NCBI GenBank assembly: GCA_965261105.1
Contig: CBDHCM010000006.1
Coordinates: forward strand, 1,970,091-2,034,090
Reading direction: 5' to 3'
Source of the DNA: Candidatus Aldehydirespirator sp.
GTDB taxonomy: Bacteria > Actinomycetota > Acidimicrobiia > Acidimicrobiales > Aldehydirespiratoraceae
Length of the DNA: 64,000 nucleotides
Position numbers and translations under genes: made by a program. Each line of letters starts with the position of its first letter. Position 1 is the first letter of the stretch. Below, piece after piece: positions 3,032-62,489 of this stretch. Under the pieces are notes generated by a model. The model worked only from the letters and a program-made list of their open reading frames with translations. It made no database searches and was not told the DNA's origin.

Positions 3032-3035
3032 AGCG

Positions 3036-6854: not shown

Positions 6855-9946
<3,092 letters not shown>

Positions 9947-10122
9947 CTGCTCGATGCGCTAGCTCGGGTCGGAGCCTGATCGAACGACCATCGACCGATA
10001 GGAAGGCGTCAACGTCGAGGACTACGAGCGCTGGGTCCGCGAGCGGGACTACCCGTACGCCAGATCCTTCGGCTCGGGTGGCGACTTGAGATCTTCGCCT
10101 TGCGATTCACCACGCGGCGGGC

Positions 10123-11373: not shown

Positions 11374-11571
11374 TCCACATTGTGGATGATCTCTTGTCCC
11401 CGGAGTTTCCCACCGCCTAGGTTTGCTGGCTCCTCTATCACCATGGCTCGGCTATTTCGTTGAAGCCAGAAAGAGCCAGCATCACGTCTGTTTCGGATCA
11501 CTGGGACGCAGCTAGCATCCTGCCCGCAACGTTGATGGGTGGCTCATCAGACCGGCGCGCGGCCTAGACCG

Positions 11572-12543: not shown

Positions 12544-12889
12544 ATCCCTACCTTCTCACCGGCGCCAGCGTGATGACCAACACTGCAACTGGATGCGCTC
12601 GCTGAGGATCTGGGCCAACCCATCGTGTCGATGTCGATCCGGGCACTGCCAGCGGAGTTCCCAGACGACATCGTGACGCTGGGCCGGATCCCGTACGAGG
12701 CCAGCGCCGATGCCGTCATGTACCGGCGGGTGCTTGACGACCCACATCCTCCCTCAGGAGATCACCCAGACTCGGTCACCCCCGGCCCGACGCAGAAGGG
12801 ACAACGTCTCAGGTTGTCACACCTAGCGAGCGGCCCGACGCTCCACCGCTGGACGGCTCCTGGTGTGGTGGGCCGTCCACCAAGCCGCT

Positions 12890-14257
12890 TCAGCCCATTA
12901 TCGGCTCGTCGGGCACGCCGGCCTCGTAGCGTTCCCAGAAGGCGGGGGCGGCCTCGCGGCAGCGGGCCTTGACCTCCTGTTCGTCGACGGTCAGCAGCTC
13001 GCGGTCCCTCATGAGGACCTCTCCGGCGACGATGGTGGTGGTGATCATCGACTCGTTCATGGCGAAGATCAGATGACCGCCGATGTTGGCGGGCGTCATC
13101 GGGGTCGCCGGGTGGTAGTCGACCAGGATCAGGTCGGCGGCTGCGCCCTCGGCTACCGTGCCTACGGGCGTGTCGGGGAAGTACAGGGACGCGAGGGCGG
13201 CGTTGTTGTAGACCGCCATCTCGAGGAGCTGATCGGGCGACAACCGCCGCCCGTCGCGGTGCGCGATCTTCTGGAGGAAGTAGGCGGCTTCGGCCTCTCG
13301 CCACATGGTGGGCGCCAGTCCGTCGTTTCCCAGGCACACCCTGACGCCGGCCCGCATCTGCGACTCGACGGCTGCGATGCCGTCGCCCACGTTCATGTTG
13401 TTGCGGGGCTGGTGACTCGACGCGGTGCCCGTGTCGGCCAGGAGCATGATCTCTCTGGCGTCGAGATGGATGGCGTGGGCCATGATCGAGCGGTCGCCGA
13501 GCATGTCGTGGTTGAAGAGCCGATCCACCGAGCGGGTGCCGGACTCGGCGAGGCTCCTGTACTGGTCGTACTCGTGCTCGCCGACGTGGACGTGGAACCC
13601 GACCCCGGCGGGCACCGACTCCCGGCACGCCGCCAGCGTGTCATCGCAGACCGTCATCGGCGCGTGGATCCCGAAGTTGGCCGCGATGCGCGCGCCGCTG
13701 ATCGGGCCGCCGGAGCAGCGATCGACGAATCGGGCGTTCTCGGCGATGCCCGCGCCGGCTCGTTCGGGGCCGTCGCGGTCGGTGACCTCGAAACATAGAA
13801 CGGCCCGCAGGCCAGCGCTGGAGATCACCGACGCGATCAAATCGAGGACCCCGTCGATGCAGTTGGGCGAGGAGTGGTGATCGAAATAGGTCGTGGTGCC
13901 GTTCTTGATGGCGTCGACCGTCCCGACCTCGACCGCGAGGCGCACCTCTTCCTCCCCGAGCGCCCGGTCATAGGGCCACCAGAGCCGATCGAGGATCGTC
14001 GGCAGGGTGATCGGGGGGTGATGGGGAACGTTCATCCCCACCGCGAAGGCACTGTAGAAGTGGCCGTGGGCGCAGATGTTCCCAGGCAGGATGTACTGGC
14101 CGCCAGCATCGAGTCTCGCCGCGCCGCCGTGACGGTCCTCCAGCTCGGCGCTGGGCCCGATCGCGACGATCCCGCCGTCCTCGATGAGCAGCGCATGGTC
14201 GTCCATGATCTCGTTCGGCCGTCCCCAGGTGACGACAGTGCCGTTGGTGATCAGCAC
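12890..14257 (-). CDS. Metal-dependent amidohydrolase (SsnA/AtzA-like)
   Basis: PGNICAHGHFY, GTTTYFDHHSSP, HVHVGE, MAHAIH, LGNDG, GAAADL. Confidence 0.85.
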   Translation of the reverse strand: MLITNGTVVTWGRPNEIMDDHALLIEDGGIVAIGPSAELEDRHGGAARLDAGGQYILPGNICAHGHFYSAFAVGMNVPHHPPITLPTILDRLWWPYDRALGEEEVRLAVEVGTVDAIKNGTTTYFDHHSSPNCIDGVLDLIASVISSAGLRAVLCFEVTDRDGPERAGAGIAENARFVDRCSGGPISGARIAANFGIHAPMTVCDDTLAACRESVPAGVGFHVHVGEHEYDQYRSLAESGTRSVDRLFNHDMLGDRSIMAHAIHLDAREIMLLADTGTASSHQPRNNMNVGDGIAAVESQMRAGVRVCLGNDGLAPTMWREAEAAYFLQKIAHRDGRRLSPDQLLEMAVYNNAALASLYFPDTPVGTVAEGAAADLILVDYHPATPMTPANIGGHLIFAMNESMITTTIVAGEVLMRDRELLTVDEQEVKARCREAAPAFWERYEAGVPDEPIMG

Positions 14258-14305
14258 CGGGGGCCCCCTCGGCCCCGGCGCGGGGCGTGCCCGCCCGCGA
14301 CCGGG

Positions 14306-15325
14306 CTAGAACCCGTCGGCGAAGGCATCTATCACCTCTCGGATGTTGCCCTTCAGCGGGTACATGATCGGGCACGTCACCCCCGCGTCGACGTACTGGC
14401 GGACCTTGCGGCGGCAGTCCTCGGCAGTGCCGACGGCCATGATGTCGCGCACGATCTCGTCGGGAATGACCGCGCTGGCCCGCTCGTAGTCCTCCTCGGT
14501 GGCCGGCCACCCCATCAGGGCCTTCGCCCGGTCGGCGACCTCCTCGCTGACGCCGCTGGCCTTCATGATGTGGGGCTCCGTGGCGAAGTAGTAGGCCGCC
14601 AGCTTCTTGCCCTCGTGCAGCGCGCTGTCGGGATCCTCGTCGCACATCGACACGACGATCAGCTCCGGGAGATCGATGTCGGAGATGGACCGCCCCGCCC
14701 TGTGGGCGCCCTTCTCCACCAGGGTGACGGCCCGGCGGACGTAGTCGACCGAGACGCCGTAGTTCAAGCAGACCCCGTCGCAGATCTCCCCGGCCAGCTC
14801 TAGCATCCTCGGGCCGGTCGCACCGAGGTAGATGGGTATGTCGCGCGGGGAGGTGTCTCCCCACACCACGTCGAGGGACACGCCGTCGAGGCGCACGAAG
14901 TCGCCGGTGTAGGTCACCGGCTCCATGGAGAACAGGGCCCTGATCGCCTCGATGTTCTCACGCATGGCCGCGAGCGGGCGGGTCATCTCCACGCCGACGC
15001 GGCCCGCGATCGGCTCCCACCAGGCGCCGAGACCGAGCATCACGCGGCCCCGACCGTCGACCTTGCCGCCGAGTTCCCACATGGTGCTGAAGCTCGCCGC
15101 GATCACCACCGGGTTGCGGGTCCAGATGGGCAGGACCCCGGCGGCGACCTTGATGCGGCGCGTGTGCGTCAAGAATGCGCTCATGGCGACGATGCAGTCC
15201 CGCGCCAGACGGTTGTCGCCCTGCCAGATCTCGCTGAAGGCCCGGTCCTCCATGTACAACGCGAGATCGAGCTCCTCTCGGATGTCGATCCTGTCCTGCA
15301 TGTAGATGGCCATGCGCTGCGTCAC
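14306..15325 (-). CDS. LLM class flavin/F420-dependent oxidoreductase
   Basis: [41 protein letters not shown]. Confidence 0.88.
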
Positions 15326-15379
15326 TACAAGACCCTCCGTTGCCGGGGCTCGGTCGGTGTGTCCCTGCGGGCGGCCGTG

Positions 15380-16405
15380 TCAGCTGCCGAAGTCGAAGGC
15401 ATCGATGCCCGAGAGCAGTTCGGCCCGAAGCGGGTCCGGGCAGAAGCTCGCCTCGACGGAGGTCCGTGCAAGCTGGCGGATGACGTCGGTGGACCAGCCG
15501 TAGACCTCGCTCGCAGTAACGTACTCGTCTTCGAGGTTGATCCGGTAGAAGCCCGGCCCGTCGGTGTTGAGGGTGACCCGTGCTCCCGCGTCGACGAGGG
15601 TCCGGATCGGATGGGACGCCCGGTCCGGATACATGCCGAGCAGCACGTTGGACCACGGGCAGACGTTGAGGAAGATGCCGCGCTCGACGAGCTCCTCGAC
15701 CAGTTCGGGGTCTTCCACCGATCTCACGCCGTGGTCGACCCGCTGGGTCTTGAGGAGGTCGATCGCGTCCCACACGCCTTCAGGGCCGCTCGACTCGCCG
15801 GCGTGGGCCCGTATTCCGAGTCCGTTGGCCCGGGCCCGCTTGAAGACGGGGGCGAAACGGTCACCGGTGCGTCCCGCCAGAGCTTCGTTCCCGTCGATCG
15901 ACAGGGCCGCCACTCTCGGATGCTGCATGGCCAGCATGGTGTCGAGCACGGCATGGGCTTCGGCCCGGCTGTGCTTGCGGGAGATGCTGATCGACAGGTA
16001 CACGGGCGGGCAGCCGTCGCGCTCCGCCTCCTCGAGCCCCGACGCGACCGCGGCGATGAACTCCTCGAGCGGGCCCGTGAAGCTCTTCCAGTGGATGGGG
16101 CTCACCATCACGTCGGTGTAGGAGACCCCCGAGCGGCGCTGGCGCTGGGCGAGCGAGTACGACAGCGACGCGACCTGCTCGCCGTTGCACGGCAGGGCGA
16201 GGACCCAGTCGAGGAAGGTCAGGAACTCCTGGAGGTCGGCCCACTCGAACATGGCCTCGGGCGGCTCCTTGAGCAACGGAACACCGTTCTCGGTTGCCAG
16301 CCTGACCGCGTCCTGCACCTCGAAACCGCTGTCGAGGTGGATGTGCAACTCCGCTTTGGGAAGTCTGCGGACAGTGTCTGCGGTGACAGCGCCCATCGTG
16401 TCCAC
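15380..16405 (-). CDS. Adenosine deaminase family protein (second, divergent paralog)
   Basis: LPKAELHIHLD, AHAGE, RVDHGVR, CPWSN, NTDG. Confidence 0.85.
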   Translation of the reverse strand: MDTMGAVTADTVRRLPKAELHIHLDSGFEVQDAVRLATENGVPLLKEPPEAMFEWADLQEFLTFLDWVLALPCNGEQVASLSYSLAQRQRRSGVSYTDVMVSPIHWKSFTGPLEEFIAAVASGLEEAERDGCPPVYLSISISRKHSRAEAHAVLDTMLAMQHPRVAALSIDGNEALAGRTGDRFAPVFKRARANGLGIRAHAGESSGPEGVWDAIDLLKTQRVDHGVRSVEDPELVEELVERGIFLNVCPWSNVLLGMYPDRASHPIRTLVDAGARVTLNTDGPGFYRINLEDEYVTASEVYGWSTDVIRQLARTSVEASFCPDPLRAELLSGIDAFDFGS

Positions 16406-16503
16406 CCTTCACGCCAGCTCTGGCATCGTGTCGAGCGACTCGACACTGTTGCCGGCACCTCGCCGCCGGAACCGAGTCGCAAACGTCGACGCTAGCTGAT
16501 GAG

Positions 16504-16530
16504 GCCGCCCCCGTTCGAGCACGGGGCGGC
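16504..16530. terminator. GC-rich hairpin, possible terminator after esterase copy 2
   Basis: GCCGCCCC...GGGGCGGC 8-bp stem; no U-tract. Confidence 0.4.
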
Positions 16531-16648
16531 TCTCGAAGGCTCGGGCCTGTTGCAGAAGGCGCTCCCCCACATCGGTCACACGACCGACGGCAAGTTCTGA
16601 ACCACGTTGATCAGGCTGGCGAGCGGGCTACACCGTCAGCCAGCTGAT

Positions 16649-17608
16649 TCAGCCGTTCAACGCCCGGTCGAGCGCGGCCTTCTCGTCGCGGCGCCAGCGC
16701 CGGGAGGTGTCGGATTCAGGGACCAGGGTGGACGAGCCGTGGAACGCGCCCGGGTACACGTGCAGCTCGCACGGCACCTCGGCGGCGAGCAGCGCCTGGG
16801 CGTAGGCGATGTCCTCGTCGAGGAATATGTCGAGGCTGCCGACGGTGATGATGGCCGGCGGAAGCCCGCCGAGATCGGTCGCCCGGGCCGGAGCGGCGTA
16901 GCACGGGACGTCGTCGGCGCCGTTGTTGGCGTCGAGGTAGGCGGACCAGCCCGCCATGTTGGCGTCGCGGTTCCATACCCGGTTGTCGTCGATCATGAAG
17001 CTGGAGGGCGTCTCGTTTCGGTCGTCGAGCATCGGGAACGTCAGCAGCTGGAAGCAGGGGCTGACCTGTTTGCGATCGCGGGCCAGCAGGGCGAGCCCCG
17101 CGGCGAGGCAGCCGCCCGCGCTGGCACCGCCGACGGCTATGCGGGCGGTGTCCAGGCCGAACGCCTCGCCTTGTTCGAAGAACCACACGAGGCCGCAGTA
17201 GCAGTCCTCCAGCGGGGTCGGATACGGGAACTCGGGCGCCAGGCGATAGTCGACGGACGCAACCACCACGTCGAGGTCGGAGGCGATCGCCGCGCAGCCG
17301 GCGTCGTTCATGTCGACGCTGCCCAGCACCATGCCGCCGCCGTGGATCCAGTACAGGCCGGGACTGCGGTCGCGCCGCTGCTTGGGCCGGTAGACGCGCA
17401 CGAGCACCTGATGGCCGTCGGCGGCCTCGGCGTGATGGTCGGCGATCTCGACCGTGTCAGGAATCTCGGGCACGGGCAGGAGAGCCATGAGCTCGTCGAA
17501 GCTTGCCCGCGCCGCGGGCACGTCGGAGAGGTCGAGCAGATCGCCGGGCAGCATCTCCAGCACCGCGAGGTGCTCGGCATCGAGGTGATCCTCAAGGTTG
17601 ATACTCAT
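16649..17608 (-). CDS. HSL-family esterase, copy 2
   Basis: Near-identical to 11572..12543; same motifs. Confidence 0.92.
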   Translation of the reverse strand: MSINLEDHLDAEHLAVLEMLPGDLLDLSDVPAARASFDELMALLPVPEIPDTVEIADHHAEAADGHQVLVRVYRPKQRRDRSPGLYWIHGGGMVLGSVDMNDAGCAAIASDLDVVVASVDYRLAPEFPYPTPLEDCYCGLVWFFEQGEAFGLDTARIAVGGASAGGCLAAGLALLARDRKQVSPCFQLLTFPMLDDRNETPSSFMIDDNRVWNRDANMAGWSAYLDANNGADDVPCYAAPARATDLGGLPPAIITVGSLDIFLDEDIAYAQALLAAEVPCELHVYPGAFHGSSTLVPESDTSRRWRRDEKAALDRALNG

Positions 17609-17620
17609 GTCCCTACCTTG

Positions 17621-18190
17621 TTACAGGATGATGGTCAGGTTCTGTTGGGGTCCCTCGGCGTCGATCAGCACGATGATCTTCCATGCGATCTGCCAGTTGC
17701 CGGGGCCTGTTGGGGTTGTGGGTTGGCGGACTAGCCGGTAGTCGATGGTTCCGGTCCAGCGTCGATGCTGATCGGGCCGATACTCGTCGCAGATGAGGGC
17801 GCATCGCGAGCGGCAGGTTTCGTCGTCGATGGGCCAGACCTCGACGCCGGCAAGGCTCCTCTGCGTCCGCGATGGCGGGCTCTGACCGTGCACCTTGCCG
17901 GTGCCCAGCCAGGCGACCCGGTCCTCGATCCGCCGGCGATCGTCGAACGCGAGGGACCAGGTGGTCGCCGGGTCGTCGAAGCGGCTCAGGGGGATCCAGT
18001 AGACGGCCTCATCGGTGAGGAGGTCGAGCCATTCGCGGTAGCGGCCGTCGTCAAGCAGGCGCGCTTCATGGAGGATCAGCCCTTCGACTTCGGTGCGGAG
18101 GCTGCTGAAATCTGATCGACCCAGCCTGGTCGAATCAGCCGCGAACGCCCGGAGGCGCTCATAGAGCCCGTCGTCGACGTACGAGCTCAC
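17621..18190 (-). CDS. Aromatic ring-hydroxylating dioxygenase beta subunit
   Basis: EARLLDD..YREWLDLL...YWIP, QSPPSRT; GTG start overlaps the alpha-subunit stop. Confidence 0.88.
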   Translation of the reverse strand: MSSYVDDGLYERLRAFAADSTRLGRSDFSSLRTEVEGLILHEARLLDDGRYREWLDLLTDEAVYWIPLSRFDDPATTWSLAFDDRRRIEDRVAWLGTGKVHGQSPPSRTQRSLAGVEVWPIDDETCRSRCALICDEYRPDQHRRWTGTIDYRLVRQPTTPTGPGNWQIAWKIIVLIDAEGPQQNLTIIL

Positions 18191-47521: not shown

Positions 47522-50171
47522 CTGAGTCCCGTCGATGCAATCGCCATCGTCCATGAGCACACAGGCTGGCCGGGACAACTACGGATCAAGACTCGCTCCG
47601 GTGACTGGCAGCCAGCCCATTCCGTGCTGATGCCCGGCGACATCTTGCCCGGCGACGGCAGCCGGGATGACGATGCGACCGTCGATATAGATTTTCATCA
47701 CCGCGATGTCCCGCTGTTGTCTGAACTTGGGGTGAGCGACGCGCCGCTGGCGAGCCGCGACATGAGGTGGGAGCCCCTCTTCTACCAGTACCAGCGCCGC
47801 TGTGAGGAGCATTACCGCCGACGAGACGATCTTCCGTTTTGGCCACGGACGGGATACCTGGACCTCACGTCGATGGGCGTCGGTCCGCTGACCGTGCTAC
47901 TTGGGCTGTCCGGCGAGGGTAGGGCGCTCTTCACCGACGCGCTGCTGGAACTGGATGCCAGTTATCAATCGTGCAGGATGTGGCACACGGGTTCGAACGG
48001 ACACCTCTATCCAGAGGTGTCCTTCGACTCGTTAACGGTTGACGCCATACGCACACATGGCCGGATCCGTACCGCTGGCGGAATTGTGCCGTTCGCTGAC
48101 GCGCTCGGGCCTCAGCCCAAGAGTCCGGCGGCCCTTCACGTCCTTTTGCGGCATCCGAAGGCCGACAAGATCAAGCAGGCCTTCAAACTCTCGGAACCAG
48201 TACCGGAGTTCTTCGGGGAAGGAGAACCGGTTCCGCTGACCGACGCATGGCCAGGACTGGCAGGGCATCTGCCAGCACACCGTAGGACAAGCAAGCTCAT
48301 TCTCTGCGAACGGATCCGTATAGCGGGGGTGGAGCGCGATTGCGTCTTCGGCACGCCCGACGTCTATCTCGCCGGCAACGTCGAGGACGATGAGAGGAGA
48401 GCTCTCGAACTAGTCGCTGAAGCTCTTGACCTAGCTCTGACGCACGGCGCGATTGACGCAATCCTGCAACGCAGGACTCCTGCAGAGATTGAAGAGCGAC
48501 GAGCCGCGGTTCGACTACACCCGACAGATGCCGAGCGCCTCCTCGCGGCGGTCGGCGAAGAGGCCCTGCGTACGGGTCTTCCTCCATCGCTGCTGGACGC
48601 ACTCGCCAATGGCAGTGAGGCACTCCAGGGCACGGACCTTGCGGAGGCCGCCATCGCAACCCACCACACGGACGCCCTTAGGCAGTTCAAATGGGCGCTG
48701 GACGCCCTCGACCCGCCCAAGAGTTGGTCTGGATCGCGGCGCGCCGTCGAGTTCGTGCGCTCTCTGGGCTTCTCGGAGGAGTGGGCGGGAGAGCGCAATA
48801 GGCGGCGCCCAGCTTTCATGGAAGTCGAAGGTCCCTGGTCGCTTCCTGAGCTCCACGACTATCAGCAAAGGGTTGCCGCGAACGTGCGCGAGATGCTCCG
48901 ATCGGAGCCGGGTGACGGTATCGAGCGGCGCGGGATGCTCACCATGCCGACCGGCTCGGGAAAGACCCGCGTTGCTGTTCAGGCGATTGTCGAGGCCATG
49001 CGTGACGACGGAATCCAGGGTGGTGTTCTCTGGATCGCGGACCGCGACGAACTCTGCGAGCAGGCTGTCGATGCCTGGGCGCAAGTGTGGAGAAGCCTTG
49101 GCACCGAGGCGGGGCAGCTTCGTATATCCAGGATGTGGAGTGGGCAGCCCAGACCTTCGCCTGCGAGCGAACGCCATGTCGTCGTCGCCACTGTCCAAAC
49201 GCTCAGCGCTCGGCTGTCGAACTATCCGGCCGAGTACGAGTTTCTTAAGGACTTCACGTTGGCAGTCTTCGACGAAGCGCACCGGTCGATCGCTCCCACG
49301 TTCACATCCGTCATGCAGGAGATCGGGTTGACGTACCGCAGAAGAGAGGACGAGCCCTTCCTGCTCGGCCTCACGGCCACCCCGTACCGAGGGCACGACC
49401 AAGAGCAGACGGCCAGGCTCGTCCGCCGCTATGGCCAGAACCGGCTTGATGCCGGGGCGTTCGTTAGCGACGACCCGCGGGACGTCATCAGCGAACTGCA
49501 GGCCATGGGCGTGCTCGCCCGCGCCGACCAGGAAATGATCGAAGGCGGCACGTTCCGACTGACGACCGAGGAGCTGGAAGAAGTATCAAGATTCGCGCGA
49601 GGGACAGAGCGACTAGCTCATCCTCTCGCCTGGCTCCCGCAGAGCGTGGAAGATCGCATGGCACTGGACTCCCGCCGCACCACACGCATCATCGAGGCGT
49701 ACAAGGCCCATGTGGAGCCGGACTGGCCCACCCTGATCTTCGCAACATCCGTGGAGCACGCCCAGACCCTGGCAGCACTGCTGAACCTGCGGGGGATCAC
49801 GGCGAGATCTGTGAGCGGAACCACCGAACCGGCCACCCGCCGGCGCGTGGTTGAGGGATTCCGCAATGGTGAAATCACTGCGCTCGTCAACTACGGCGTT
49901 TTCCGCGAGGGATTCGATGCGCCCAAGACACGGGCCATCATCGTGGCCCGGCCGGTGTACAGCCCGAATCTCTACTTCCAGATGATCGGTCGAGGACTGA
50001 GGGGTCAGATGAACGGCGGCGATGACCGCTGCCTCATCCTCAACGTACGCGACACCATCGCGAATTTCGGCGAAGGGCTCGCCTTCGCTGACTTGGACTG
50101 GCTATGGGATCGCTGAAAGCGAACCGCGCTTCTGAACAGGGACGGATGCTGTTCGTGGTCTCGTGAGAGGT

Positions 50172-50266
50172 GGCAAAGAAAAGCCCCGCCAGTGCACCAC
50201 CGACAAGCGATGGTGGACGGCGGGGAAGATTGGTTGATTTCTAGCAGATCAACGAGGGCAATGCAA
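50172..50266 (-). ncRNA. Candidate small RNA 'B', copy 1, with own promoter
   Basis: Minus strand TTGCAT-N17-TAGAAA, then CCAATC, CCCCGCC...GGCGGGG hairpin and CTTTTCTTT tail; 3 copies in window. Confidence 0.55.
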
Positions 50267-50280
50267 CCACGGTGGCAAAG

Positions 50281-50889
50281 CTACGGGCGGTAGTCGAAGG
50301 GGTCGTGGACTTGGTCGTAGTCCCGTCGGCCAAAGCGATGCTCCCATCTGAGGTAGCTCCTCTGAGGCTGTCGCCTGCCTCCTCCGGTCCATGCAGCGGT
50401 CTCGCAAGCCACTCCCGAGGCGTGCGCACGCTCCAGCGCCGGCAGCAAGTCGGAGTCTCCCGAGAACAACACCACGACGTCGAATTCTCCGTTAGCGGCG
50501 CCGAACGCGAGATCTAGGGCGAGCACTACATCGATCCCCTTCTCGCGCGGAGTGCCGGTGCGGTAGTCGAGCGGCCGGGTGCAGACCTCCAGTCGGGGCT
50601 CGCTGGTGCTCGCAGCGCTGCGCCAGCGACTGACCTGCTTGCGGGCCGCGGCGTAGCCTTTTGGACTCTTGGTCGAGCTCGGCATGCCGCGATAGATCTG
50701 GACTTGGACGAGTTTGCGAAGTCGTGTACCTGGATAGCTCGGATGGCGCTGCTCAATCAGCTTGGCGAGTTTGAGGGGATCGAACTGTCCAACGACATGG
50801 TGATCGCCGTCTTCGCCGAACGCCTGCCGCGCGCCACGATAGGCGTTCTGGTAGTCGATGAACAGAGCGAGCCTGTCAAGACCAGACAT
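50281..50889 (-). CDS. NYN domain (PIN-like) RNase
   Basis: LFIDYQN, REKGIDVVLALD, FSGDSDLLPA. Confidence 0.92.
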   Translation of the reverse strand: MSGLDRLALFIDYQNAYRGARQAFGEDGDHHVVGQFDPLKLAKLIEQRHPSYPGTRLRKLVQVQIYRGMPSSTKSPKGYAAARKQVSRWRSAASTSEPRLEVCTRPLDYRTGTPREKGIDVVLALDLAFGAANGEFDVVVLFSGDSDLLPALERAHASGVACETAAWTGGGRRQPQRSYLRWEHRFGRRDYDQVHDPFDYRP

Positions 50890-50985: not shown

Positions 50986-52140
50986 TCACCAAGTTCCTCT
51001 TGCGTCACGCTCTGCTGCGCGCTGCAACCGGTCTTCAGCAATAACCGTGGCTGGCCGTTCCGTCTCGAGACCGAGCTTCCACATGATGTACCTCGCCGTT
51101 GCTCGACGAGTGGGAGCACGCGTGACGACTTCCGTCTCTGCCATGCAGATGCCCTGCCAGTCGCGGTTGGTCTTTCGCCAGTCGATCTCAGCCAGGCCAT
51201 CGAGGATCTCAGTCCAAGAGGTGCTCGGGTCATCGTGCGCTGCTCGGGCGGCACCTCCGGCGAAGCCGAGAGCCCACAACGACAGCGCATAGGACGACAC
51301 GTATACCTGCCGGGCGTGCTGGGGCTTGGTGTCACCCTCAAGAATCCCCCGCCAGGGCACCACCAGGTCCGTAAGGCGGATCCAGAAATCGATCGCCAGC
51401 GACCTCATGTCCTCCACCTCTGTTTCCGGGAGCTTCTCGGGAAGGTTGCCCAACAGCTGGACGTTGGCCTGCTGCAGCCCGGAGAGGGTGGCGAACCTCG
51501 CTGAACGCACCGACAGCGACACCCGTTCCTTGTCGATGCGATCCTTGAACAGCGGCACCTCCTCCACGCAGGCCATCGTGACGCGGTTGATCGGCAAACG
51601 GTGGTCAAAGAGGATGTCGAGCGACTTCGAAGTCTTGTGCACCGTGCGGTTGAGATCGGAGAAGATCTGCTGGCTGCGCTCCAGGCCGCCGTCGGGCAGA
51701 ACGACCACCGAGATCGTGTCCTCAGCGAGCGCCGAGTCGCGGCGGAGCGCCTCGGAAATGCCCGCCACGCGGTGCTGGCCGTCGTTGATGACGTACTTCG
51801 CCTCTAGGGGCAGAATCAACTCGCCGATGTCAGCCCCCTGGTCCACAGGGTCGAAGTCCACATCGTCGGAGTCCACCGAGACGGTGATCGCGGAGAAGAT
51901 GTAGTCCTCGTGGTCCAGGACGTAGTTGGCGATCTCTGGGATCCTCTTGGAGTTGAGGGCCCGTTGGCTCCTGTTCTCCGGAGTCAACTCGAGCATCTGG
52001 TCCGGGTCGAAGGTGAAGAGCTTGACGACGGCGCCGAACGGCAGGGTCGCCGTGTAGTAGTTGGTGTTCCCCATCCGGCCGCGGGTGGCGGGAACCCGGA
52101 AAGTGGGCTTAAGACGGCTTGTCACGCTTCTGAGAGACAT
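50986..52140 (-). CDS. dndB: DndB-like DGQHR domain protein
   Basis: RSQRALNSKRIPEIANY, IFSAITV, INDGQHR, SQQIFSDLN. Confidence 0.85.
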   Translation of the reverse strand: MSLRSVTSRLKPTFRVPATRGRMGNTNYYTATLPFGAVVKLFTFDPDQMLELTPENRSQRALNSKRIPEIANYVLDHEDYIFSAITVSVDSDDVDFDPVDQGADIGELILPLEAKYVINDGQHRVAGISEALRRDSALAEDTISVVVLPDGGLERSQQIFSDLNRTVHKTSKSLDILFDHRLPINRVTMACVEEVPLFKDRIDKERVSLSVRSARFATLSGLQQANVQLLGNLPEKLPETEVEDMRSLAIDFWIRLTDLVVPWRGILEGDTKPQHARQVYVSSYALSLWALGFAGGAARAAHDDPSTSWTEILDGLAEIDWRKTNRDWQGICMAETEVVTRAPTRRATARYIMWKLGLETERPATVIAEDRLQRAAERDARGTW

Positions 52141-52314: not shown

Positions 52315-53028
52315 TTAGAGCGCTGTTCGAGCCTTCGACTCCTGGGGAAGTACGAGGGCTCCTCCGTCTTCGGTGTCCGCGACGGTGAGTGGCGGCATGG
52401 CCGGGTGCCGCGACTTGTCGACCTCGGGGGTGTTGGCCTTGCGTTTGTTGCAGTAGGTGTGGGCAGCCTGGAGGTTGTCGATCTTGTGCAGGCGGCTCTT
52501 GTATTGGATGCCCGGCTCGGCCTTGCCGCCCTTGCCGACGTCGAACAGGACGAACACCTTGGGCACCACATGCTCGATCTGGGCGCCCTTGATCTTCGTC
52601 TCCCCCGCGCACAGCCCGCATCGCCCGCCGTCGCGGTCATAGACGTAGCGGAGCATGCTGCGCCTATGAGCGTCGTCCCAGCGGCCGGCGGCATCAGGCT
52701 CGTCTCGTTCCAGATACCAGCGGTGGCCTTTGTCGATGGTCTTTGCGACTTTGGTGAGGAACCCCCGGGGCTTGTCACCCGCGTCTGGGGTCGTCGCCTC
52801 CTCGGCGTTGTCTTGTGCTCTTTGAACGGGAGCGGAGGCATCCTTGTCGGCCGGTGCGTCCACAGGCGGTTGGTCCTGAACTATGCCGCGGCATCGCGGG
52901 AACTCGGAGCACCCCCAGAACTCGCTGCCGGCGTTCACTCCTCGCCGGGCCGTGCGCCGAACCATGGGCCGGTCGCACTTCGGGCAGCTGGGAATCGGCA
53001 CTGTGGTCTCCTCTGCCAGTGAACTCAT
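52315..53028 (-). CDS. Topoisomerase-type C4 zinc finger + HNH endonuclease
   Basis: CPKCDRPM...FWGCSEFPRC; RDGGRCGLC...EHVVP...NLQAAHTYCN. Confidence 0.85.
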   Translation of the reverse strand: MSSLAEETTVPIPSCPKCDRPMVRRTARRGVNAGSEFWGCSEFPRCRGIVQDQPPVDAPADKDASAPVQRAQDNAEEATTPDAGDKPRGFLTKVAKTIDKGHRWYLERDEPDAAGRWDDAHRRSMLRYVYDRDGGRCGLCAGETKIKGAQIEHVVPKVFVLFDVGKGGKAEPGIQYKSRLHKIDNLQAAHTYCNKRKANTPEVDKSRHPAMPPLTVADTEDGGALVLPQESKARTAL

Positions 53029-53803
53029 GAGTACTGCCAGCGTTATTGCGAGCGAGGGAACGATAGCGGCGCAGGTGTGAAGCCAAGGCGCCTATAGCAA
53101 CATTCGTAGCTAGAGCTGCAACCGAAGCGGATTCATCGAGGGCGGCTCTAGTCTTCGTTGAGCGATGCACACGGAAACACGGCGGCGGTACACGGGGTCG
53201 AGCGCGCTGACCTCTCCACTTGTTCTCGGCCGACCGGACGGCTCGTAAGTCCGCCGGAGCCATCCAGCTTGACGGGTGCCGTCGGGGCGTGAGCTCATTG
53301 GATTGGGACAGCACCAAGCGCAAGCTTGCGGAGGCAACTGAGGTCGGCCGCGACGCGGGGGTCGCCAAGAGCCTCAAGGCGGGCGGCAGGGCAGCGTTGG
53401 ACGCGACCGCGGAGCGCACGGCACAGGTGATGGCCGCGGCTCAGGCCCTGTTGGCGAGTGACCTGTCCTCAGACCTCAACAACCTGGTCGCGGCCGCGGT
53501 CAAGGGAAGCGCGACGATCTACGACAAGGCGATGGACGCCAACTACCTCGACCCGCTGCTGCGGCCGGGTCTGGGCGGCAGCTACCACCGGCTCTTCGAT
53601 GGGGGCCACACCATCGCCGGGGCCGTCAGAGCCGCTCGGGACGCATCCTCCGACGACACCGTCATCGAGGAGGCGCGGGGAACCGTTCAGGCGCTGCTCA
53701 GAGACGCCGCTACCCCCAGAGGCCTGCCGGTCGCGACCTGGGACAAGGGCACCTTCGACGCAGTGGCGGACTCCCGGGAGTCGACGTTCGCAATACCCAA
53801 GAG
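52918..53803. repeat. 886-bp direct repeat, copy 1
   Basis: Colinear with 55041-55926. Confidence 0.9.
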
Positions 53804-53822
53804 TGGTGAGCATCCCCCCTAA
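53289..53822 (+). pseudogene. Truncated copy of hypothetical membrane protein (see 59711..60754)
   Basis: Match ends after ESTFAIPKS. Confidence 0.8.
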
Positions 53823-54031: not shown

Positions 54032-54127
54032 GGCAAAGAAAAGCCCCGCCAGTGCACCACCGACGGAGCGGAGGCGGACGGCGGGGAGGATTGGGTACAT
54101 GATGGCGCATTGCAGCCGATGATGCAA
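54032..54127 (-). ncRNA. Candidate small RNA 'B', copy 2
   Basis: TTGCAT-N17-CATCAT at the same spacing as copy 1; same hairpin and U-rich tail. Confidence 0.55.
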
Positions 54128-54254: not shown

Positions 54255-54929
54255 TCAAGGGCGGGCGGCGATCACCGCGGGCGTTCGGCTGGTCGCGGCA
54301 ATCCATGCGCGGGAGTCGGAGCACATCCAGCCGACTAGCTCCAGAAGGTGCGCGTGATCGCGGGACAGATCGCGTCGATGGATCGGCTCGTGATGCGCGA
54401 TCCGGTTCCGAAGGAAGTGGAGGCGCTGCATCCGGTCTGCCACGCCGGCTCGAACTTGCCGCGGGTTACGGGTCGCAGGGTGCATCGGAAACACTGACGC
54501 GACTGCGGGCACCCACAGCGATGTCAGGTACGGAGGCTTGCACAGGTATCGCCAGAATCCGAAGCTCAATTCGGCGATGACCCTGCCGTGCACCTCCGAG
54601 CCCGTGCCTCCACCGGTCGCGCGCCGCTGGGCAGCGTCGATGTCTTCTCGGGCCCGCCTGCCGTGCTGGCCCGGAAAGAGTTGCATCTGCCGGTACCACA
54701 CGTCTGCCCATCCCCTAGCCGATCCGTATCTCACGAGCGCATCGTCGACCGCATTGCGGAAGACGATCTCTAGACGGCCAAGATCCTCATGTAGAGCACC
54801 GGCCACGCTGGCATTCCAGTCGTACAGGCGGATGGCGGCCTCAATGTCGCCGCCGGTGGCCTGCAGGTAGGATTCAAGGCGTGTCGTCGTCAGGCGAGTG
54901 GCGATTATTTGGTAATCAATGCTTGACAT
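54255..54929 (-). CDS. Abi family (AbiD/AbiF, Abi_2-like) HEPN RNase
   Basis: RLESY...LYDWN...LEIVFRNA, ELSFGFW, LRNRIAHHEPI (RxxxxH). Confidence 0.88.
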   Translation of the reverse strand: MSSIDYQIIATRLTTTRLESYLQATGGDIEAAIRLYDWNASVAGALHEDLGRLEIVFRNAVDDALVRYGSARGWADVWYRQMQLFPGQHGRRAREDIDAAQRRATGGGTGSEVHGRVIAELSFGFWRYLCKPPYLTSLWVPAVASVFPMHPATRNPRQVRAGVADRMQRLHFLRNRIAHHEPIHRRDLSRDHAHLLELVGWMCSDSRAWIAATSRTPAVIAARP

Positions 54930-55017
54930 CTTCTTCCCAGACCCTATAGTTGTTCTTGAAGGCCCCGGAACCGTCCCTGCTTCGGCAAACGGCCGGGGTT
55001 ACGCCTTTCTGGGGCTC
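54923..55017 (+). ncRNA. Candidate small RNA 'A', copy 1, with sigma70 promoter overlapping the abi start codon
   Basis: TTGACA (54923)-N16-TATAGT (54945); nested hairpin capped by a C(UUCG)G tetraloop. Confidence 0.6.
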
Positions 55018-55040
55018 GCTTGCCGTCGCACCGAAGCAAG

Positions 55041-55926
55041 GAACTCGCTGCCGACGTTCGCTCCTCGCCGGGCGGTGCGCCTCACCATCGGCCGGTCGCA
55101 CTTCGGGCAGTTGGGAATCGGCACTGTGGTCTCCTCTGCCAGTGAGCTCATGACTACTGCCAGCGTCCGCGCGAGCGAGCGAACGATAGCGGCGCAGGTG
55201 TGCGACCAAGGCACCAATAGCAACATTCGAGGCTAGAGCTGCACCCGAAGCAGATCTATCGAGGGCGGCTCTAGTCTTCGTTGAGCGATGCACACGGAAA
55301 CACGGCGGCCGTACACGGGGTCGAGCGCGCTGACCTCCACTTGTTCTCGGCCGACCGGACGGCTCGTGAGTCCGCCGGAGCCATCTAGCTTGACGGGTAC
55401 CGTCGGGGCGTGAGTTCATTGGATTGGGACAGCAACCAAGCGCAAGCTTGCGGTGGCAGCCAAGGTCGGCCGCGACGCGGCGGTCACCAAGAGCCTCAAG
55501 GCGGGCGGCTGGACAGCGCTGGACGCGACCGCGGAGCACACGGCGCAGGTGATGGCGGCGGCGCAGGCCCTGTTGGCGAGTGACCTGTCCTCAGAGCTCA
55601 ACAGCCTGGTCGCGGCCGCGGTCAAGGGAAGCGCGACCATCTACGACAAGGCGATGGACGCCAAGTACCTCGACCCGCTGCTGCGGCCGGATCTGGGCGG
55701 CAGCTACCACCGGCTCTTCGATGGGGGCCACACCATCGCCGGGGCCGTCAGAGCCGCTCGGGACGCATCCCCCGACGACACCATCATCGAGGAGGCGCTG
55801 GGAACCGTCCAGGCGCGTGCTCAGAGACGCCGCCACCCCCAGAGGCCTGCCGTTCGCGACCTGGGACAAGGGCACCTTCGACGCAGTGGCGGGTTCCCTG
55901 GAGTCGACGTTCGCAATACCCAGGAG
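55041..55926. repeat. 886-bp direct repeat, copy 2 (includes 5' fragment of the zf-HNH gene)
   Basis: Colinear with 52918-53803. Confidence 0.9.
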
Positions 55927-56455
55927 CTGGTTCCATGACCTGAACACCTACGACGCGGCCGACCTGCTCGGCGCGTCGGTGGGTGTGGTCGCCGTGGTCC
56001 TGGGATGGAACCGCGCCGACACCGAAACCTTCGCCAGCCTCACCGCCGGCATGGGGCTGCCAGCCGCCGTCGGCGCCAATCCCCTACTGCTGGTCGTCGT
56101 GGTAGTCGCGGCAGCCAGAGCCTTCCACAAGGCCCGCCCCGGCGGCGAGTACACCGAACTCGTCGACGGCGGATTCAAAGGCGCCGTCGGCTCCGGGGCG
56201 ACAATGGCGGCGGTCGCGCTCGCGACTTCGGCCGGCGGGCCCGCGGGAGTGGCGCTCCTGGTCGGCCTCACCGCAGGCATCGTCGCCAACTCCGCAACGA
56301 AGAACGTGAGCCTGACCGCAATCGGCCGTTTCGTCGCCACCCGAGCCGCCGCCATGACTACAGACCCCGCCACAGAGCAGGCCGCCGAGCTGGCGGATGT
56401 CGATGGGCCCGACGGAGCCGACAGCGACGCAATGGACACGGCTCACAACCTCTGA
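55410..56455 (+). pseudogene. Frameshifted full-length copy of hypothetical membrane protein
   Basis: Single-base insertions near 55435 and 55816 relative to the paralogs. Confidence 0.75.
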
Positions 56456-56745
56456 TCATCGCGACCGCTCCGCAGCAGCCGCCTGAGCCGCCGCCCGAGC
56501 TCGCCCAAGACGCTGGAACCCCCACGCCTCTTCCGGTACGGCATTGGCCGTGGCGATTGGCGCGGTTGGCGCTGTCATACTGCTGCGGTACGGTTCGGCC
56601 GCTCGGGCGGCGCTCCATGCTGAGGGCTAGGGGCCGGGCGAATCGCTGTCAAGCGCCGCCCGGTGAGCCGACAGCCGCGAAGCGGCCCGTGCACCCGGGT
56701 GCTAACTTCGCCAGCGCATCGTCAAGCATACGTGGAGGCACGGAA

Positions 56746-58953: not shown

Positions 58954-59043
58954 GTCTAGCGCGCTGGGCTGCGAAGAGAGGCGGGCATGACCATCAGGCC
59001 CTACACCGACGTGCCTTCATGTGCCTGATCCTGGACTTCGAGA

Positions 59044-59520
59044 TCAAGGGGATTTCTTAGCCAGGTAGTCCGTGTCGGTGGCCTGGAGCAGGCGGAGCAC
59101 GTCGAGGGCGTCCTTGTCGCTCATGCGGTCACTGGCACTTGAGCGTTCGGCGATCTTGTGGACCTTGGCCACCACAAGTCCGCCCGGGCCTGCGACGTGC
59201 ATGGTGGCGCTACGGCTATCAGAAGGGTCGAGGGCTTGGATCTCCATCGGTTCTCGGTCGACCAGCGCAGCCTCAAGTCCCTTGGCCCGACGGGCGACAC
59301 GCTTGCCATGCGGCCCGAGGCGAGCGCCACGCGATCCCGGACCCGCCAGGGCTTCGGGCACCATGAGATCGACGTAGATGCCGTCGGGACTGACCCATCT
59401 GCCGGGGGACTCACGCAGTGTGAAGCCGCGTCGGATCAGCAGTTCGTCCAGCAGAGGCGAGTCTGCGAGATCGGCTGGACCGATGGCGAGGTCGGCGTCA
59501 CCGACCTTCGTTGCGGCCAT
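59044..59520 (-). pseudogene. Nucleotidyltransferase-family (GSU2403/AbiEii-like) fragment
   Basis: DADLAI, VDLMVPE, LVVAKVHKI...KDALD; lacks the N-terminal GG/GA motif. Confidence 0.55.
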
Positions 59521-59710
59521 GCAGCCGGGCGCACCAGACGCACAGGAACGGGTGAGGATAGGTGGTCACAGCATCGACGCTAGGCGATCAGATGAGATCG
59601 CAGTCAGCGCGTCGATCTCGTCCTGGACTGGCTGGATTCCAGCGGCGGGATCGTCAGAGGCCCGTGAATCTCCCCGGGGTGGTGTAGCCCTTGCTGGGTA
59701 CTGTCGGGTT

Positions 59711-60754
59711 GTGAATCCGTTGGATTTGGACAGCGCGAAGCGCCAGCTCCGGCGAGCGGCTGAGATCAAACCTGGTACGGCGGTCGCCGACAGACTCAAA
59801 GCCGGCGGCAGGACAGCGCTGGACGCGACTGCGGAGCGCACGGCACATGTGATGGCCGCGGCGCAGGCACTGTTGGCGAGTGACCTGTCCTCAGACCTCA
59901 ACAACCTGGTCGCGGCCGCGGTCAAGGGAAGCGCGACGATCTACGACAAAGCGATGGACGCCAACTACCTCGACCCGCTGCTACGGCCGGGGCTGGGCGG
60001 CAGCTACCACCGGCTCTTCGATGGGGGCCACACCATCGCCGGCGCCGTCAGAGCCGCTCGGGACGCATCCCCCGACGACACCGTCATCGAGGAGGCGCTG
60101 GGAACCGTTCAGGCGCTGCTCAGAGACGCCGCCACCCCCAGAGGCCTGCCGCTCGCGACCTGGGACAAGGGCACCTTCGACGCAGTGGCGGACTCCCGGG
60201 AGTCGACGTTCGCAATACCCAAGAGCTGGTTCGATGACCTGAACACCTACGACGCCGCAGACCTGCTCGGCGCGTCATTGGGTGTGGTCGCCGTGGCCTT
60301 GGAATGGAACCGTGCCGACACCGAGACCTTCGCCAGACTCACCGCCGGCATGGGGCTGCCAGCCGCCGTCGGCACCAATCCCCTACTGCTGGTCGTCGTG
60401 GTCGTCGCTGCAGCCAGAGCCTTCCACAAGGCCCGCTGCGTCGACGAGTATACCGAACTCGTCGACGGCGGATTCAAGGGCGTCGTCGGCTCCGGAGCGA
60501 CAATGGCGGCGGTCGCGCTCGCGACCTCGGCCGGCGGGCCCGCGGGAGTGGCGCTCCTGGTCGGCCTCACCGCAGGCATCGTCGCCAACTCCGCAACGAA
60601 GAACGTGAGCCTGACCGCAATCGGCCGCTTCATCGCCACCCGAGCCGCCGCCATGACTACAGACCCCCCTACAGAAGAGGCCGCCGACCCGCCGGATGTC
60701 GATGGGCTCGACGGAGCCGACAGCGACGCAATGGACACGACTCACAACCCCTGA
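59711..60754 (+). CDS. Hypothetical membrane protein (intact copy)
   Basis: GGSYHRLFDGGHT motif; Gly/Ala-rich hydrophobic C-terminal helices. Confidence 0.7.
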   Translation: MNPLDLDSAKRQLRRAAEIKPGTAVADRLKAGGRTALDATAERTAHVMAAAQALLASDLSSDLNNLVAAAVKGSATIYDKAMDANYLDPLLRPGLGGSYHRLFDGGHTIAGAVRAARDASPDDTVIEEALGTVQALLRDAATPRGLPLATWDKGTFDAVADSRESTFAIPKSWFDDLNTYDAADLLGASLGVVAVALEWNRADTETFARLTAGMGLPAAVGTNPLLLVVVVVAAARAFHKARCVDEYTELVDGGFKGVVGSGATMAAVALATSAGGPAGVALLVGLTAGIVANSATKNVSLTAIGRFIATRAAAMTTDPPTEEAADPPDVDGLDGADSDAMDTTHNP

Positions 60755-60874
60755 CCATCGCGACCGCTCCGCACCAGCCGCCGGCGGTCTGCCCGTAGAT
60801 CGTGTCAGCGCGGCGTCCTTGTCGGCTCGCCGAGTCCGGTGGATCCGAACCGCTGCGATATCATGTTTGATGTC

Positions 60875-61725: not shown

Positions 61726-61802
61726 TGCTAGGATGGCGGCGAAGACCCCGGAACCGTCCCTGCTGCGGCAAACGGCCGGGGTTGCGCCCTTTTGGGGCTC
61801 GC
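61726..61802 (+). ncRNA. Candidate small RNA 'A', copy 2
   Basis: Extended -10 TGCTAGGAT (61726-61734), then near-identical hairpin (loop TGCG). Confidence 0.5.
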
Positions 61803-61858
61803 CCGCCGTCTCGGGCGTGCCAGCGAAGACAATCGACCACGAAGCGCAGCCTTCGCAT

Positions 61859-61929
61859 GGAAAGAGAAGCCCCGCCAGTGCGCCACCGACGGGCGGAGGC
61901 GGACGGCGGGGAGGATTGGCTACACGATA
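61859..61929 (-). ncRNA. Candidate small RNA 'B', copy 3
   Basis: -10 TATCGT at the same spacing; compensated G-C pair in the stem; -35 not conserved. Confidence 0.5.
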
Positions 61930-62049
61930 GCCGAAGGAGAAAGACCCCCATGCGTTCTACGGGCCCGCTGTTAGCGGTTTGTCGGCTGTTTCCGGCTTGC
62001 ACCTACTGGCCGGGATCACTGCTCCACCGCCCGATCAAGCGGCGCTGCC

Positions 62050-62489
62050 CCTATGACTTCGGACAAACGATGACCAGGATCTACGACTTGACCCTGCTGT
62101 CGCGCTCCAACGTCGGCTCAACCTTCTACGTCGATCTGGCCGACTGCCTCTCGGCCCTGGTGGACGAAGCCAGGATGCAGCGCGACTACCAGCCAGAGGT
62201 GTCCAACGCGGATGCGTACCCGGTGGACTACCGGATCGAGGGAAAAAGCGGCATCCCGCTATTCCTCTACGGTGTGCCCAACCGCGACAAGGCGCGGTCG
62301 ACGACGATCATGCTCGGCTACTTCCACCGGCATGATCTCGCGTTCGAGTCGATCATCGTCTTCGAGGACCAGGCCGAGATCCCGAGAGTCGATCTTGCGG
62401 GACTCTCCGATGTGGGCGGGGACATGATCTCGTCGCTGGAGTCGACCGAGGATCTCAACCGGAAGCTCTTGATGCGTGTCGCCGCATGA
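62050..62489 (+). pseudogene. C-terminal fragment of a DUF1828-associated-type hypothetical protein
   Basis: YPVDYRIEG...LFLYGVPNRDKAR...FEDQAEIPR; no credible start. Confidence 0.45.

Follow-up and report, generated by a model that had tools for sequence, protein, structure and literature searches.

The 64,000-nucleotide (nt) stretch of Candidatus Aldehydirespirator sp. DNA analysed here (contig CBDHCM010000006.1, positions 1,970,091 to 2,034,090; hereafter the window) contains a gene for an NYN-domain ribonuclease (RNase) followed, on the same strand, by a 62-nt hairpin unit with a promoter-like site of its own. Hairpins of the same family adjoin NYN genes in most of the loci surveyed, covary as paired structures and are preceded by promoter hexamers at a preferred distance. 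We propose, with a little less than even confidence, that the unit encodes an RNA partner that restrains the NYN RNase, by analogy with the antitoxins of toxin-antitoxin (TA) systems of type III or with AbiF-RCd22. From the sequence we infer that the unit would be transcribed and that its RNA may bind and inhibit a protein that would otherwise be toxic. An earlier reading of the window from its letters alone (the original prediction) had suggested an NYN-RNA toxin-antitoxin or defence module. Its coupling to NYN, its own promoter and the lack of a protein partner stand, whereas the usual site of the hairpin proves to be the 5' leader of the NYN gene and about one in three of the genus copies is found away from NYN. 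The features on which the argument rests are the following.

50281-50889, minus strand: NYN-domain RNase gene, 202 amino acids (Pfam NYN, PF01936)
50238-50266, minus strand: promoter-like site of RNA copy 1, read directly as TTGCAT (50266-50261), a 17-nt spacer and TAGAAA (50243-50238)
50175-50233, minus strand: RNA copy 1, predicted length about 58 nt, with CCAATC (50233-50228), hairpin (50225-50184) and predicted start near 50232
54032-54127, minus strand: RNA copy 2 with promoter-like site, TTGCAT (54127-54122), a 17-nt spacer and CATCAT (54104-54099)
61859-61929, minus strand: RNA copy 3 with -10-like site, TATCGT (61929-61924), CCAATC (61919-61914) and hairpin (61911-61870)

The unit occurs three times in the window, always on the minus strand (50172-50233, 54032-54094 and 61859-61919), and each copy comprises a bulged CCCCGCC/GGCGGGG hairpin and a U-rich tail, with a -10-like hexamer (TAGAAA, CATCAT and TATCGT, respectively) 4 nt before CCAATC. 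All three copies and their hexamers, as well as the TTGCAT placed at 17 nt in copies 1 and 2, had been described before and were found again on direct reading. The TTGCAT-N17-TAGAAA arrangement said to follow the NYN gene on its own strand was likewise confirmed to the base, the stop codon TAG (50283-50281) being separated by 14 nt from TTGCAT. This site falls below the threshold of a strict sigma-70 scan; its layout and phasing recur across the family. With both ends predicted, the RNA of copy 1 would consist of a 5' CCAAUCUU, the bulged hairpin and a tail CUUUUCUUU (CTTTTCTTT, 50183-50175); it folds at -28.9 kcal/mol (z-score -4.8) and scores 96.2 bits with R1, a covariance model built from the three window copies. 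Copy 2 (CCAATC at 54094-54089, hairpin at 54086-54044, 96.5 bits) lies 160 nt downstream of a PD-T4-5-like/Abi_2 gene. Copy 3 (94.7 bits) is without a good -35 element and has no minus-strand gene upstream; its promoter region and the ribosome-binding site of a plus-strand open reading frame (ORF) starting at 61950 overlap, and an orthologue with matching flanks is present in the relative G003. The three copies have fold energies between -28.9 and -35.6 kcal/mol and z-scores between -2.7 and -4.8, and a terminator scan reports all three as terminator-like sites on the minus strand, each having the form of an intrinsic terminator. The cores are 86-91% identical to one another; the flanks are unrelated except for the promoter-like hexamers.

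A search of the genome for a 13-nt core with at most one mismatch returned 38 matches, with the hairpin context in these three only, and R1 gave three full matches among the 150 of 732 candidates that were scored. The window copies are the only ones of this subtype in the 4.95-Mb genome (G+C 68%), which also carries leader-type hairpins before two NYN paralogues and one decayed NYN start (C6:4239127) and in which four variants of the hairpin are present. Rfam contains no match in the window at the gathering score, with only a chance-level Hrs1 (E 3.3) around copy 1, and nothing at E up to 1 for the hairpin in 12 related loci. A bulged U and a C/C mismatch are kept in all three copies, as originally noted. 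Pair 27/46, which had been put forward as covarying, does vary in the manner claimed (A-U, G-U, G-C), but the signal is not significant, since it amounts to a single double change, a score reached by 339 of 500 shuffles. Support for the structure comes from covariation in the wider family and not from the three copies alone.

The NYN protein of the window matches PF01936 with 44.7 bits (cut-off 24.2; E 2.6e-11), and its acidic residues D12, D120, D126, D145 and D147 are invariant across 17 relatives. The top Foldseek match of its AlphaFold2 model (predicted local distance difference test, pLDDT, 89.6) is the PDB entry 2qip (E 1.7e-6), a protein of unknown function which we take to be NYN/LabA-like. 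The family numbers 285 representatives at E up to 1e-30, nearly all of about 200 amino acids, and 1410 at E up to 1e-10. Its distribution is patchy (28 of 101 related genomes), and no NYN match was obtained among 50,697 records of cultured phages.

In order of increasing distance from the window, the association of hairpin and NYN gene takes the following form. The element, as detected by R1, is present in 20 of the 101 related genomes (own genome counted), at 1-14 copies per genome. Fifteen NYN matches in the relatives, some of them truncated, reach 45% identity or more, and all but one (G060:1622160) are followed by the element at a distance of 31-93 nt. Within this clade of the window, the hairpin and its own promoter are kept downstream though NYN identity falls to 45-50%, no NYN follows the hairpin and no leader hairpin precedes the NYN gene. 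In the clade of 36-44% identity, on the other side, 11 of 12 loci have a diverged hairpin directly before the start codon, and the twelfth has one before a second, degenerate NYN start. The RNA gene is doubled in tandem after NYN in two genomes (G051 and G060), and NYN genes are often truncated or deleted beside an intact RNA gene, with NYN fragments before intact units in G003, G007, G051 and G060 and about 555 nt of the gene deleted in L007. In locus L033 (G051:C1:12000-31999), eight same-strand copies occur within 9 kb (9271-18141), each after the last NYN codons; two pairs of copies are in tandem at a 134-nt period, and one full and one truncated NYN gene are left.

A wider sample of 80 NYN loci was assembled from contigs at one genome per species, covering Acidimicrobiia, many Actinomycetes, Thermoleophilia and Chloroflexota, and a few Pseudomonadota, Planctomycetota, Elusimicrobiota and others. 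Model R1 gave 69 matches in these loci, every one of them on the NYN strand, located upstream of NYN in 61 loci and downstream in 3. The 16 loci without an R1 match comprise five with a hairpin found by regular expression, seven with a diverged hairpin and U-tract on folding and four with none, so that a hairpin stands beside NYN in about 76 of the 80 overall. In the leader form, the order is promoter, hairpin, U-tract, ribosome-binding site and NYN, with a median gap of about 13 nt between the hairpin and the tblastn match to NYN. Co-occurrence of the RNA with NYN or Abi genes had been proposed as the way to check the original prediction; it holds for NYN and fails for Abi, since the PD-T4-5-like gene of copy 2 adjoins no other copy in the relatives. 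An Abi-RNA pair was hence considered and dropped, and none is claimed here.

The reciprocal, RNA-seeded search applied a broader covariance model (R2) to 150 evenly drawn genomes of the phylum and returned 12 matches outside the own genome. Seven are NYN leaders and two are separate units transcribed divergently from an adjacent NYN (L202 and L203), a layout thereby seen in two unrelated genomes. The others are one hairpin before a decayed NYN start (L196), one without NYN (unpublished genome G187) and one that is probably false, located inside a coding region without promoter and tail. An intact NYN thus adjoins 9 of the 12 matches, and an NYN remnant one more. On a quick maximum-likelihood tree (IQ-TREE; 18 of the 80 loci, namely 17 partial matches and one duplicate, were left out, and L072 and L135 were dropped for in-frame stops), the downstream form occupies a six-row clade (SH-aLRT 99) and one further lineage, indicating one or two origins of the downstream layout.

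No protein neighbour of NYN is conserved within 2.5 kb in the 80 loci, where the next commonest cluster reaches 5; the absence of an adjacent protein antitoxin noted for the window thus extends to the family. NYN is also encoded on 19 actinobacterial plasmids, and in all three plasmid loci examined the hairpin ends 8-35 nt before the annotated NYN start; one of these modules sits between GNAT and RepA, and a place next to RepA and ParA is recorded for one plasmid. Three further loci have arrangements of their own. Locus L094 (600-3106) holds three tandem promoter-hairpin-NYN modules, the first two with the same hairpin variant and the third with another. In L095, a transfer RNA (tRNA) gene (1130-1218) and a second copy of its 3' 54 nt (3295-3348) bracket about 2.1 kb with a hairpin-NYN module (NYN at 2501-3091), which looks like a very small integrated island. 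In L127 (2219-2340), a variant hairpin and U-tract precede a short non-NYN ORF with a good ribosome-binding site, flanked by two further hairpin copies and upstream of NYN.

The pairing of the hairpin is borne out by the wider family. When the 69 matches are aligned, pairing extends to 97.5% of cells and changes on both sides occur in 15 of 17 pairs; cells changed on both sides number 107, versus 27.6 +/- 3.7 in shuffles, and sliding the partner by 1-3 columns as a control lowers pairing to 36-54%. The inner stems have clearly different sequences yet always pair, with free G-C/C-G swaps. Almost no variation is found in the seven outermost pairs, in the two pairs that follow (GU/AC or UU/AA), in the bulged U before GGCGGGG and in the 5' AWUNCU. 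Since the outer stem stays fixed while inner pairs swap freely, its conservation lies at the level of sequence. On the rare occasions when outer pairs do change, they change in step (CCUCACC/GGUGAGG and CCUCGCC/GGCGAGG, in variants including Bifidobacterium and Rothia). A minimal coaxial form of 7 bp and 4 bp is common.

The position of promoter hexamers relative to the hairpin is similarly regular. Among 66 hairpins of the NYN-seeded loci, 52 have TANNNT between 4 and 16 nt ahead of the stem, 38 of them at 12 nt exactly, and 31 have TTGnnn at a 16-19 nt spacer; the corresponding control counts are 21 and 1 of 400 at random positions, and 2 and 0 of 65 on the opposite strand. The 4 nt before CCAATC in the window are this same 12-nt phase, which upholds the earlier claim of a separately promoted unit. 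Given the phase, transcription is predicted to start 5-6 nt before the stem, so that transcripts would open with the hairpin, and most of them should stop after 45-60 nt at the U-tract (at least five T in the 9 nt after the stem in 55 of 66 hairpins). Pairing of the 5' CCUCC of the RNA with Shine-Dalgarno sequences was also considered, by eye, and set aside, as most of the stretch is buried in the stem.

These observations can be accommodated in the following model. The 62-nt unit would be a small RNA gene, whose promoter would fire about 5-6 nt before a stable bulged hairpin and whose U-rich tract would terminate the transcript to give an RNA of roughly 45-60 nt. This RNA would be the hallmark companion of one family of solitary NYN RNases of about 200 amino acids. 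The order promoter, hairpin, U-tract, NYN implies that NYN would be made only by read-through and that the short RNA is to be expected in excess. In the clade of the window, the RNA gene would have been relocated to just after the NYN stop with its promoter retained; a unit so placed, with its own promoter, can have no leader role and would have to act as a free RNA. The RNA is proposed to bind NYN by way of those parts that do not vary (outer 7-bp stem, bulged U and 5' AWUNCU) and binding to hold the nuclease in check, the RNA serving as antidote, as the enzyme's own regulatory substrate, or as both; were the RNA, taken to be short-lived, to disappear, the RNase would be released. Copies 2 and 3 may be spare or orphaned RNA genes of the same defence island. 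A role in trans is favoured because the pair persists in three layouts (leader, downstream and divergent), because NYN has no conserved protein neighbour, because RNA genes outlive NYN and are sometimes doubled, and because the setting fits, with defence islands, plasmids and a patchy, multi-copy distribution.

The closest precedents for such an arrangement are RNA-controlled RNases. In type III TA systems, the RNA is expressed from a promoter just upstream, and the RNase gene is separated from the RNA by a terminator, by virtue of which the RNA should be more abundant than the messenger RNA. Like toxIN, cptIN and tenpIN, the NYN family combines an endoribonuclease devoid of a protein antidote with a small structured RNA, occurs on plasmids and in defence islands, and shows the promoter-RNA-terminator-RNase order in 61 of 80 loci; the window differs in having the RNA gene after NYN. 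The toxin fold, however, is NYN/PIN-like by Pfam and Foldseek and not that of ToxN, AbiQ, CptN or TenpN, and the RNA is a single terminator hairpin, whereas theirs are tandem repeats cut out by the toxin: the window has three dispersed copies, and tandem copies number at most two, after NYN (G051). Because both the toxin fold and the repeat RNA differ, the system is not a member of toxIN, cptIN or tenpIN. By analogy, its logic appears closer still to that of AbiF-RCd22, for which a 5' leader RNA motif is reported to lower expression of an RNase toxin and to neutralise the protein by direct binding, in cis and in trans (PMC12373285). In both, the 5' leader of an RNase gene contains a conserved RNA motif, but the protein family and the RNA are different, and abiF is among the Rfam families without a match in the window and the 12 related loci. 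No Rfam 15 family and no description in the openly searchable literature (supplements aside) was found for an RNA tied to bacterial NYN genes, and no NYN-RNA pair appears in the literature on NYN with abortive infection or antitoxins, as judged by titles and abstracts. A more distant parallel, by analogy only, is Regnase-1, an NYN/PIN-like RNase that acts on stem-loops, one of them in its own messenger RNA. There too an NYN-type RNase has as its target a short stem-loop linked to its own gene; the enzyme is eukaryotic, the element lies in the 3' untranslated region and there is no separate RNA gene.

Several findings weigh against an RNA that restrains NYN. In the genus, about 15 of about 42 matches of the hairpin family (family B), or about a third, lie away from NYN or an NYN fragment, as do two of the three copies in the window, and 6 of the 20 element-carrying genomes have no NYN match with the window query (one of these NYN-negative loci carries, on the opposite strand, a distantly related PF01936 gene). 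A Ymh-HEPN gene precedes the copies in L010, L020 and L029, which represent one homologous context and not three, and SNF2 helicases come after copies in L017 and L020; Table 1 of PMC3710099 lists Ymh among the HEPN families. The RNA is a single hairpin and not a set of processed tandem repeats, and the downstream layout arose only once or twice. Leaders had been expected to carry weaker U-tracts than stand-alone units, but do not (6.4 versus 5.7 T per 10 nt). Alignment A5, made up of the 69 matches, was produced by fitting to the model, a procedure that works in favour of the structure, and related genomes in the alignment and in the counts are not independent. Lastly, HEC-09, an NYN RNase and defence candidate found within defence loci, protected against none of the tested phages in the available part of its description (bioRxiv 10.1101/2024.01.29.577857). 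That part gives it an extra N-terminal domain and reports no RNA partner, and HEC-09 is a distant relative of the window NYN, its PADLOC model giving a weak partial match to residues 110-157 only (E 1.7e-7).

The viral copies belong with these adverse findings. A strict two-arm pattern of the hairpin occurs in 46 viral contigs, and a tblastn search of the DNA fetched around each of them was negative for NYN. In myovirus-like contigs (45-47% G+C), the hairpin and U-tract lie between a tail-fibre-like ORF and a moron encoding a GT2+TPR glycosyltransferase (L152, 2174-2200, and about 25 similar viral contigs, including L147, L151-L158, L160 and L162-L164). A plain terminator would be expected at just such a junction, which keeps the terminator reading alive. 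Permuted-stem control patterns, nevertheless, occur in 3 and 0 viral contigs versus 46, indicating that the viral occurrence is not due to chance and that the sequence itself is selected, and the AWUNCU flank and the 12-nt phase of the promoter recur in many viral copies. Phages are known to mimic a type III antitoxin, and the viral copies could be decoys; they could equally be hairpins serving a host factor other than NYN. In L161, L169 and L179, the viral hairpin precedes a 102-amino-acid ORF. The original prediction had named homologues after unrelated genes, as ordinary terminators or as repetitive extragenic palindromic (REP) elements, as what would speak against it. The former are found in part, as orphans in the genus and in the 46 viral contigs, in a minority of copies; the latter are not, since a REP-like or MITE-like (miniature inverted-repeat transposable element) repeat is excluded by the presence of only three copies of this subtype and three leader-type copies in 4.95 Mb.

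Of the competing explanations, the one that survives best, rather unlikely though we judge it, is that the hairpin acts only in cis, as an attenuator or autoregulatory leader: a promoter-proximal terminator, or 5' end cap, keeping NYN expression very low. NYN might bind or cut its own leader, while downstream, divergent and orphan copies would be relics of lost or rearranged NYN genes, and copy 1 of the window would merely terminate the transcript of the HNH, DndB and NYN genes. Such a role is possible because the leader is the usual position of the hairpin, by far the commonest both in the 61 of 80 loci and in the RNA-seeded sample (7 of 12), and because U-tracts are strong and the gap from hairpin to start is too short for a second promoter. 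It would also explain the NYN-start remnants that follow several apparently orphan hairpins (L196; C6:4239127 in the own genome) and the tandem NYN arrays in which the downstream hairpin is the next gene's leader (L094, G017). It does not explain why the window clade has kept a downstream hairpin with its own promoter over deep divergence, with no NYN following and no leader, nor why a divergently transcribed copy is kept in two further lineages. Termination, moreover, needs neither an invariant outer stem nor a bulge, and the inner pairs of this hairpin swap freely. The hairpins of intrinsic terminators, attenuators and 5' stabilisers resemble it in having a GC-rich stem and U-tract between promoter and gene; they differ from the present family, whose stem sequence and bulge are invariant across phyla and whose stand-alone and divergent copies have their own phased promoter.

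An improbable alternative is that the unit is a portable promoter-terminator punctuation of mobile and defence DNA, a strong terminator linked to NYN through shared descent only. The viral contigs that carry the hairpin before or after unrelated genes and without NYN fit this view, as do the genus copies after Ymh-HEPN and Abi_2-like genes or before SNF2 helicases, and all three window copies face the ends of plus-strand genes. With 1-14 copies per genome, and three of this subtype here, the element is nonetheless too rare to be the genome's general terminator. Its coupling to NYN spans phyla, plasmids and three arrangements, the near-empty permuted-stem controls point to selection on the sequence, and a promoter directly before a terminator makes no sense for such a device.

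It is very unlikely that the RNA is a substrate or sensor and not an inhibitor, with NYN processing the hairpin (for instance by removing the 5' AWUNCU) into a product that has a role of its own, or the RNA holding NYN until displaced by a phage cue. The bulged U and the 6 nt of conserved, single-stranded leader at the 5' end do resemble a defined recognition or cleavage site, and the 7-bp plus 4-bp coaxial form is common, but no conserved downstream effector accompanies the pair.

Least probable, and likewise very unlikely, is a site acting at the DNA level, such as an attC-like or att recombination hairpin or a mobile-element target or end, with the repeats bracketing cassettes at 50.2-54.1 and 54.1-61.9 kb: the three direct repeats share a strand and a conserved asymmetry, a single copy in G003 is bordered by the flanks of copies 2 and 3 and lacks the intervening 7.8 kb, G051 has its eight same-strand copies in 9 kb, each after the last NYN codons, and an IS110 transposase gene lies between copies 2 and 3, but neither the window nor the roughly 65 kb around it encodes a tyrosine recombinase (PF00589 matches come no nearer to its ends than about 67 and 88 kb), copy number is low, no inverted core sites (R''/R') flank the stem, and the phased promoter, U-tract, fixed strand relative to NYN and leader position all indicate RNA. 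An integron attC or cassette array was accordingly rejected as the main explanation, there being no nearby integron-type recombinase and no core sites. The 7.8-kb segment is also bounded by two other repeats of the window, segA and R70, described below, so that unequal homologous recombination suffices to explain its absence from G003.

The NYN gene and the three RNA copies lie in a defence and mobile-gene island of lower G+C that takes up 41-64 kb of the window and contains the following further genes.

47624-50116, plus strand: PbeA-like helicase
50986-52140, minus strand: DndB-like (DGQHR) gene, directly upstream of NYN (Pfam DndB, E 2.3e-88; PADLOC DndB)
52315-53028, minus strand: Zn-ribbon/HNH-like gene opening the minus-strand run (Pfam Zn_ribbon_Top1, E 2.9e-9; HNH match weak)
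54255-54929, minus strand: PD-T4-5-like/Abi_2-like (HEPN-type) gene (PADLOC PD-T4-5, E 2.9e-16; Pfam Abi_2 weak)
Between RNA copies 2 and 3: IS110 transposase
Within 41-64 kb: GmrSD-like gene; TmtA-like/sacsin ATPase; DDE transposase
Within 41-64 kb: HigB/HigA-like pair

The minus-strand run reads Zn-ribbon/HNH, DndB-like and NYN, which is its last gene; a DndB-like neighbour of NYN is found in one relative only, G025. No tRNA or transfer-messenger RNA gene was found in the window. A segment of about 0.9-1.1 kb, termed segA, occurs three times at 90-93% identity (52918-53807, 55041-56483 and 59690-60782) and covers the plus-strand ORFs 53220-53822 and 55453-55938 and part of 59378-60754, which have no Pfam, NCBIfam or PADLOC match; in G003, a single segA copy adjoins the hairpin element. 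A hairpin repeat termed R70 (CCCCGG...CCGGGG) is present at 54958-55027 and 61741-61810, 90% identical, as the sole two copies in the genome, and R70-similar sequence lies upstream of hairpin-element copies in L016 and L021. The plus-strand ORF 61950-62489, whose start coincides in part with the promoter region of the oppositely directed RNA copy 3, has a strong ribosome-binding site (AAGGAG) and no family match; its counterpart in G003 has an interruption of about 0.6 kb with ends resembling window 58961-59053 beside the IS110 gene. Elsewhere, the genome has 51 PF00589 matches, including four near-identical adjacent pairs of tyrosine-recombinase genes (474 and 746-861 amino acids; for example C6:1880018/1881652, 2118768/2120402, 2475081/2476691 and 3995545/3997179), which suggests a multi-copy recombinase-borne element.

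To our knowledge, RNA antidotes of protein toxins are known for few toxin folds, namely ToxN-like proteins and, recently, Abi_2. An RNA restraining NYN could extend beyond this genus, and we tentatively raise the possibility, less firmly than the reading of the window itself, of a new and widespread class of RNA antidotes in Actinomycetota, Chloroflexota, other phyla and their plasmids, in which an NYN RNase is paired with a single promoter-proximal hairpin serving as attenuator, small RNA and antidote, and in which the NYN-less phage copies would act as decoys. If the pairing holds, NYN/PIN-like RNases would gain their first RNA-controlled bacterial module and the NYN family a function, and a conserved, strongly covarying motif would be added to RNA databases. 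The pair would also offer a very small system, an RNA of about 45 nt and a protein of 200 amino acids, for studying stem-loop recognition by an NYN nuclease. Even if the hairpin were an attenuator only, a sequence-invariant leader common to phyla and phages would still call for explanation.

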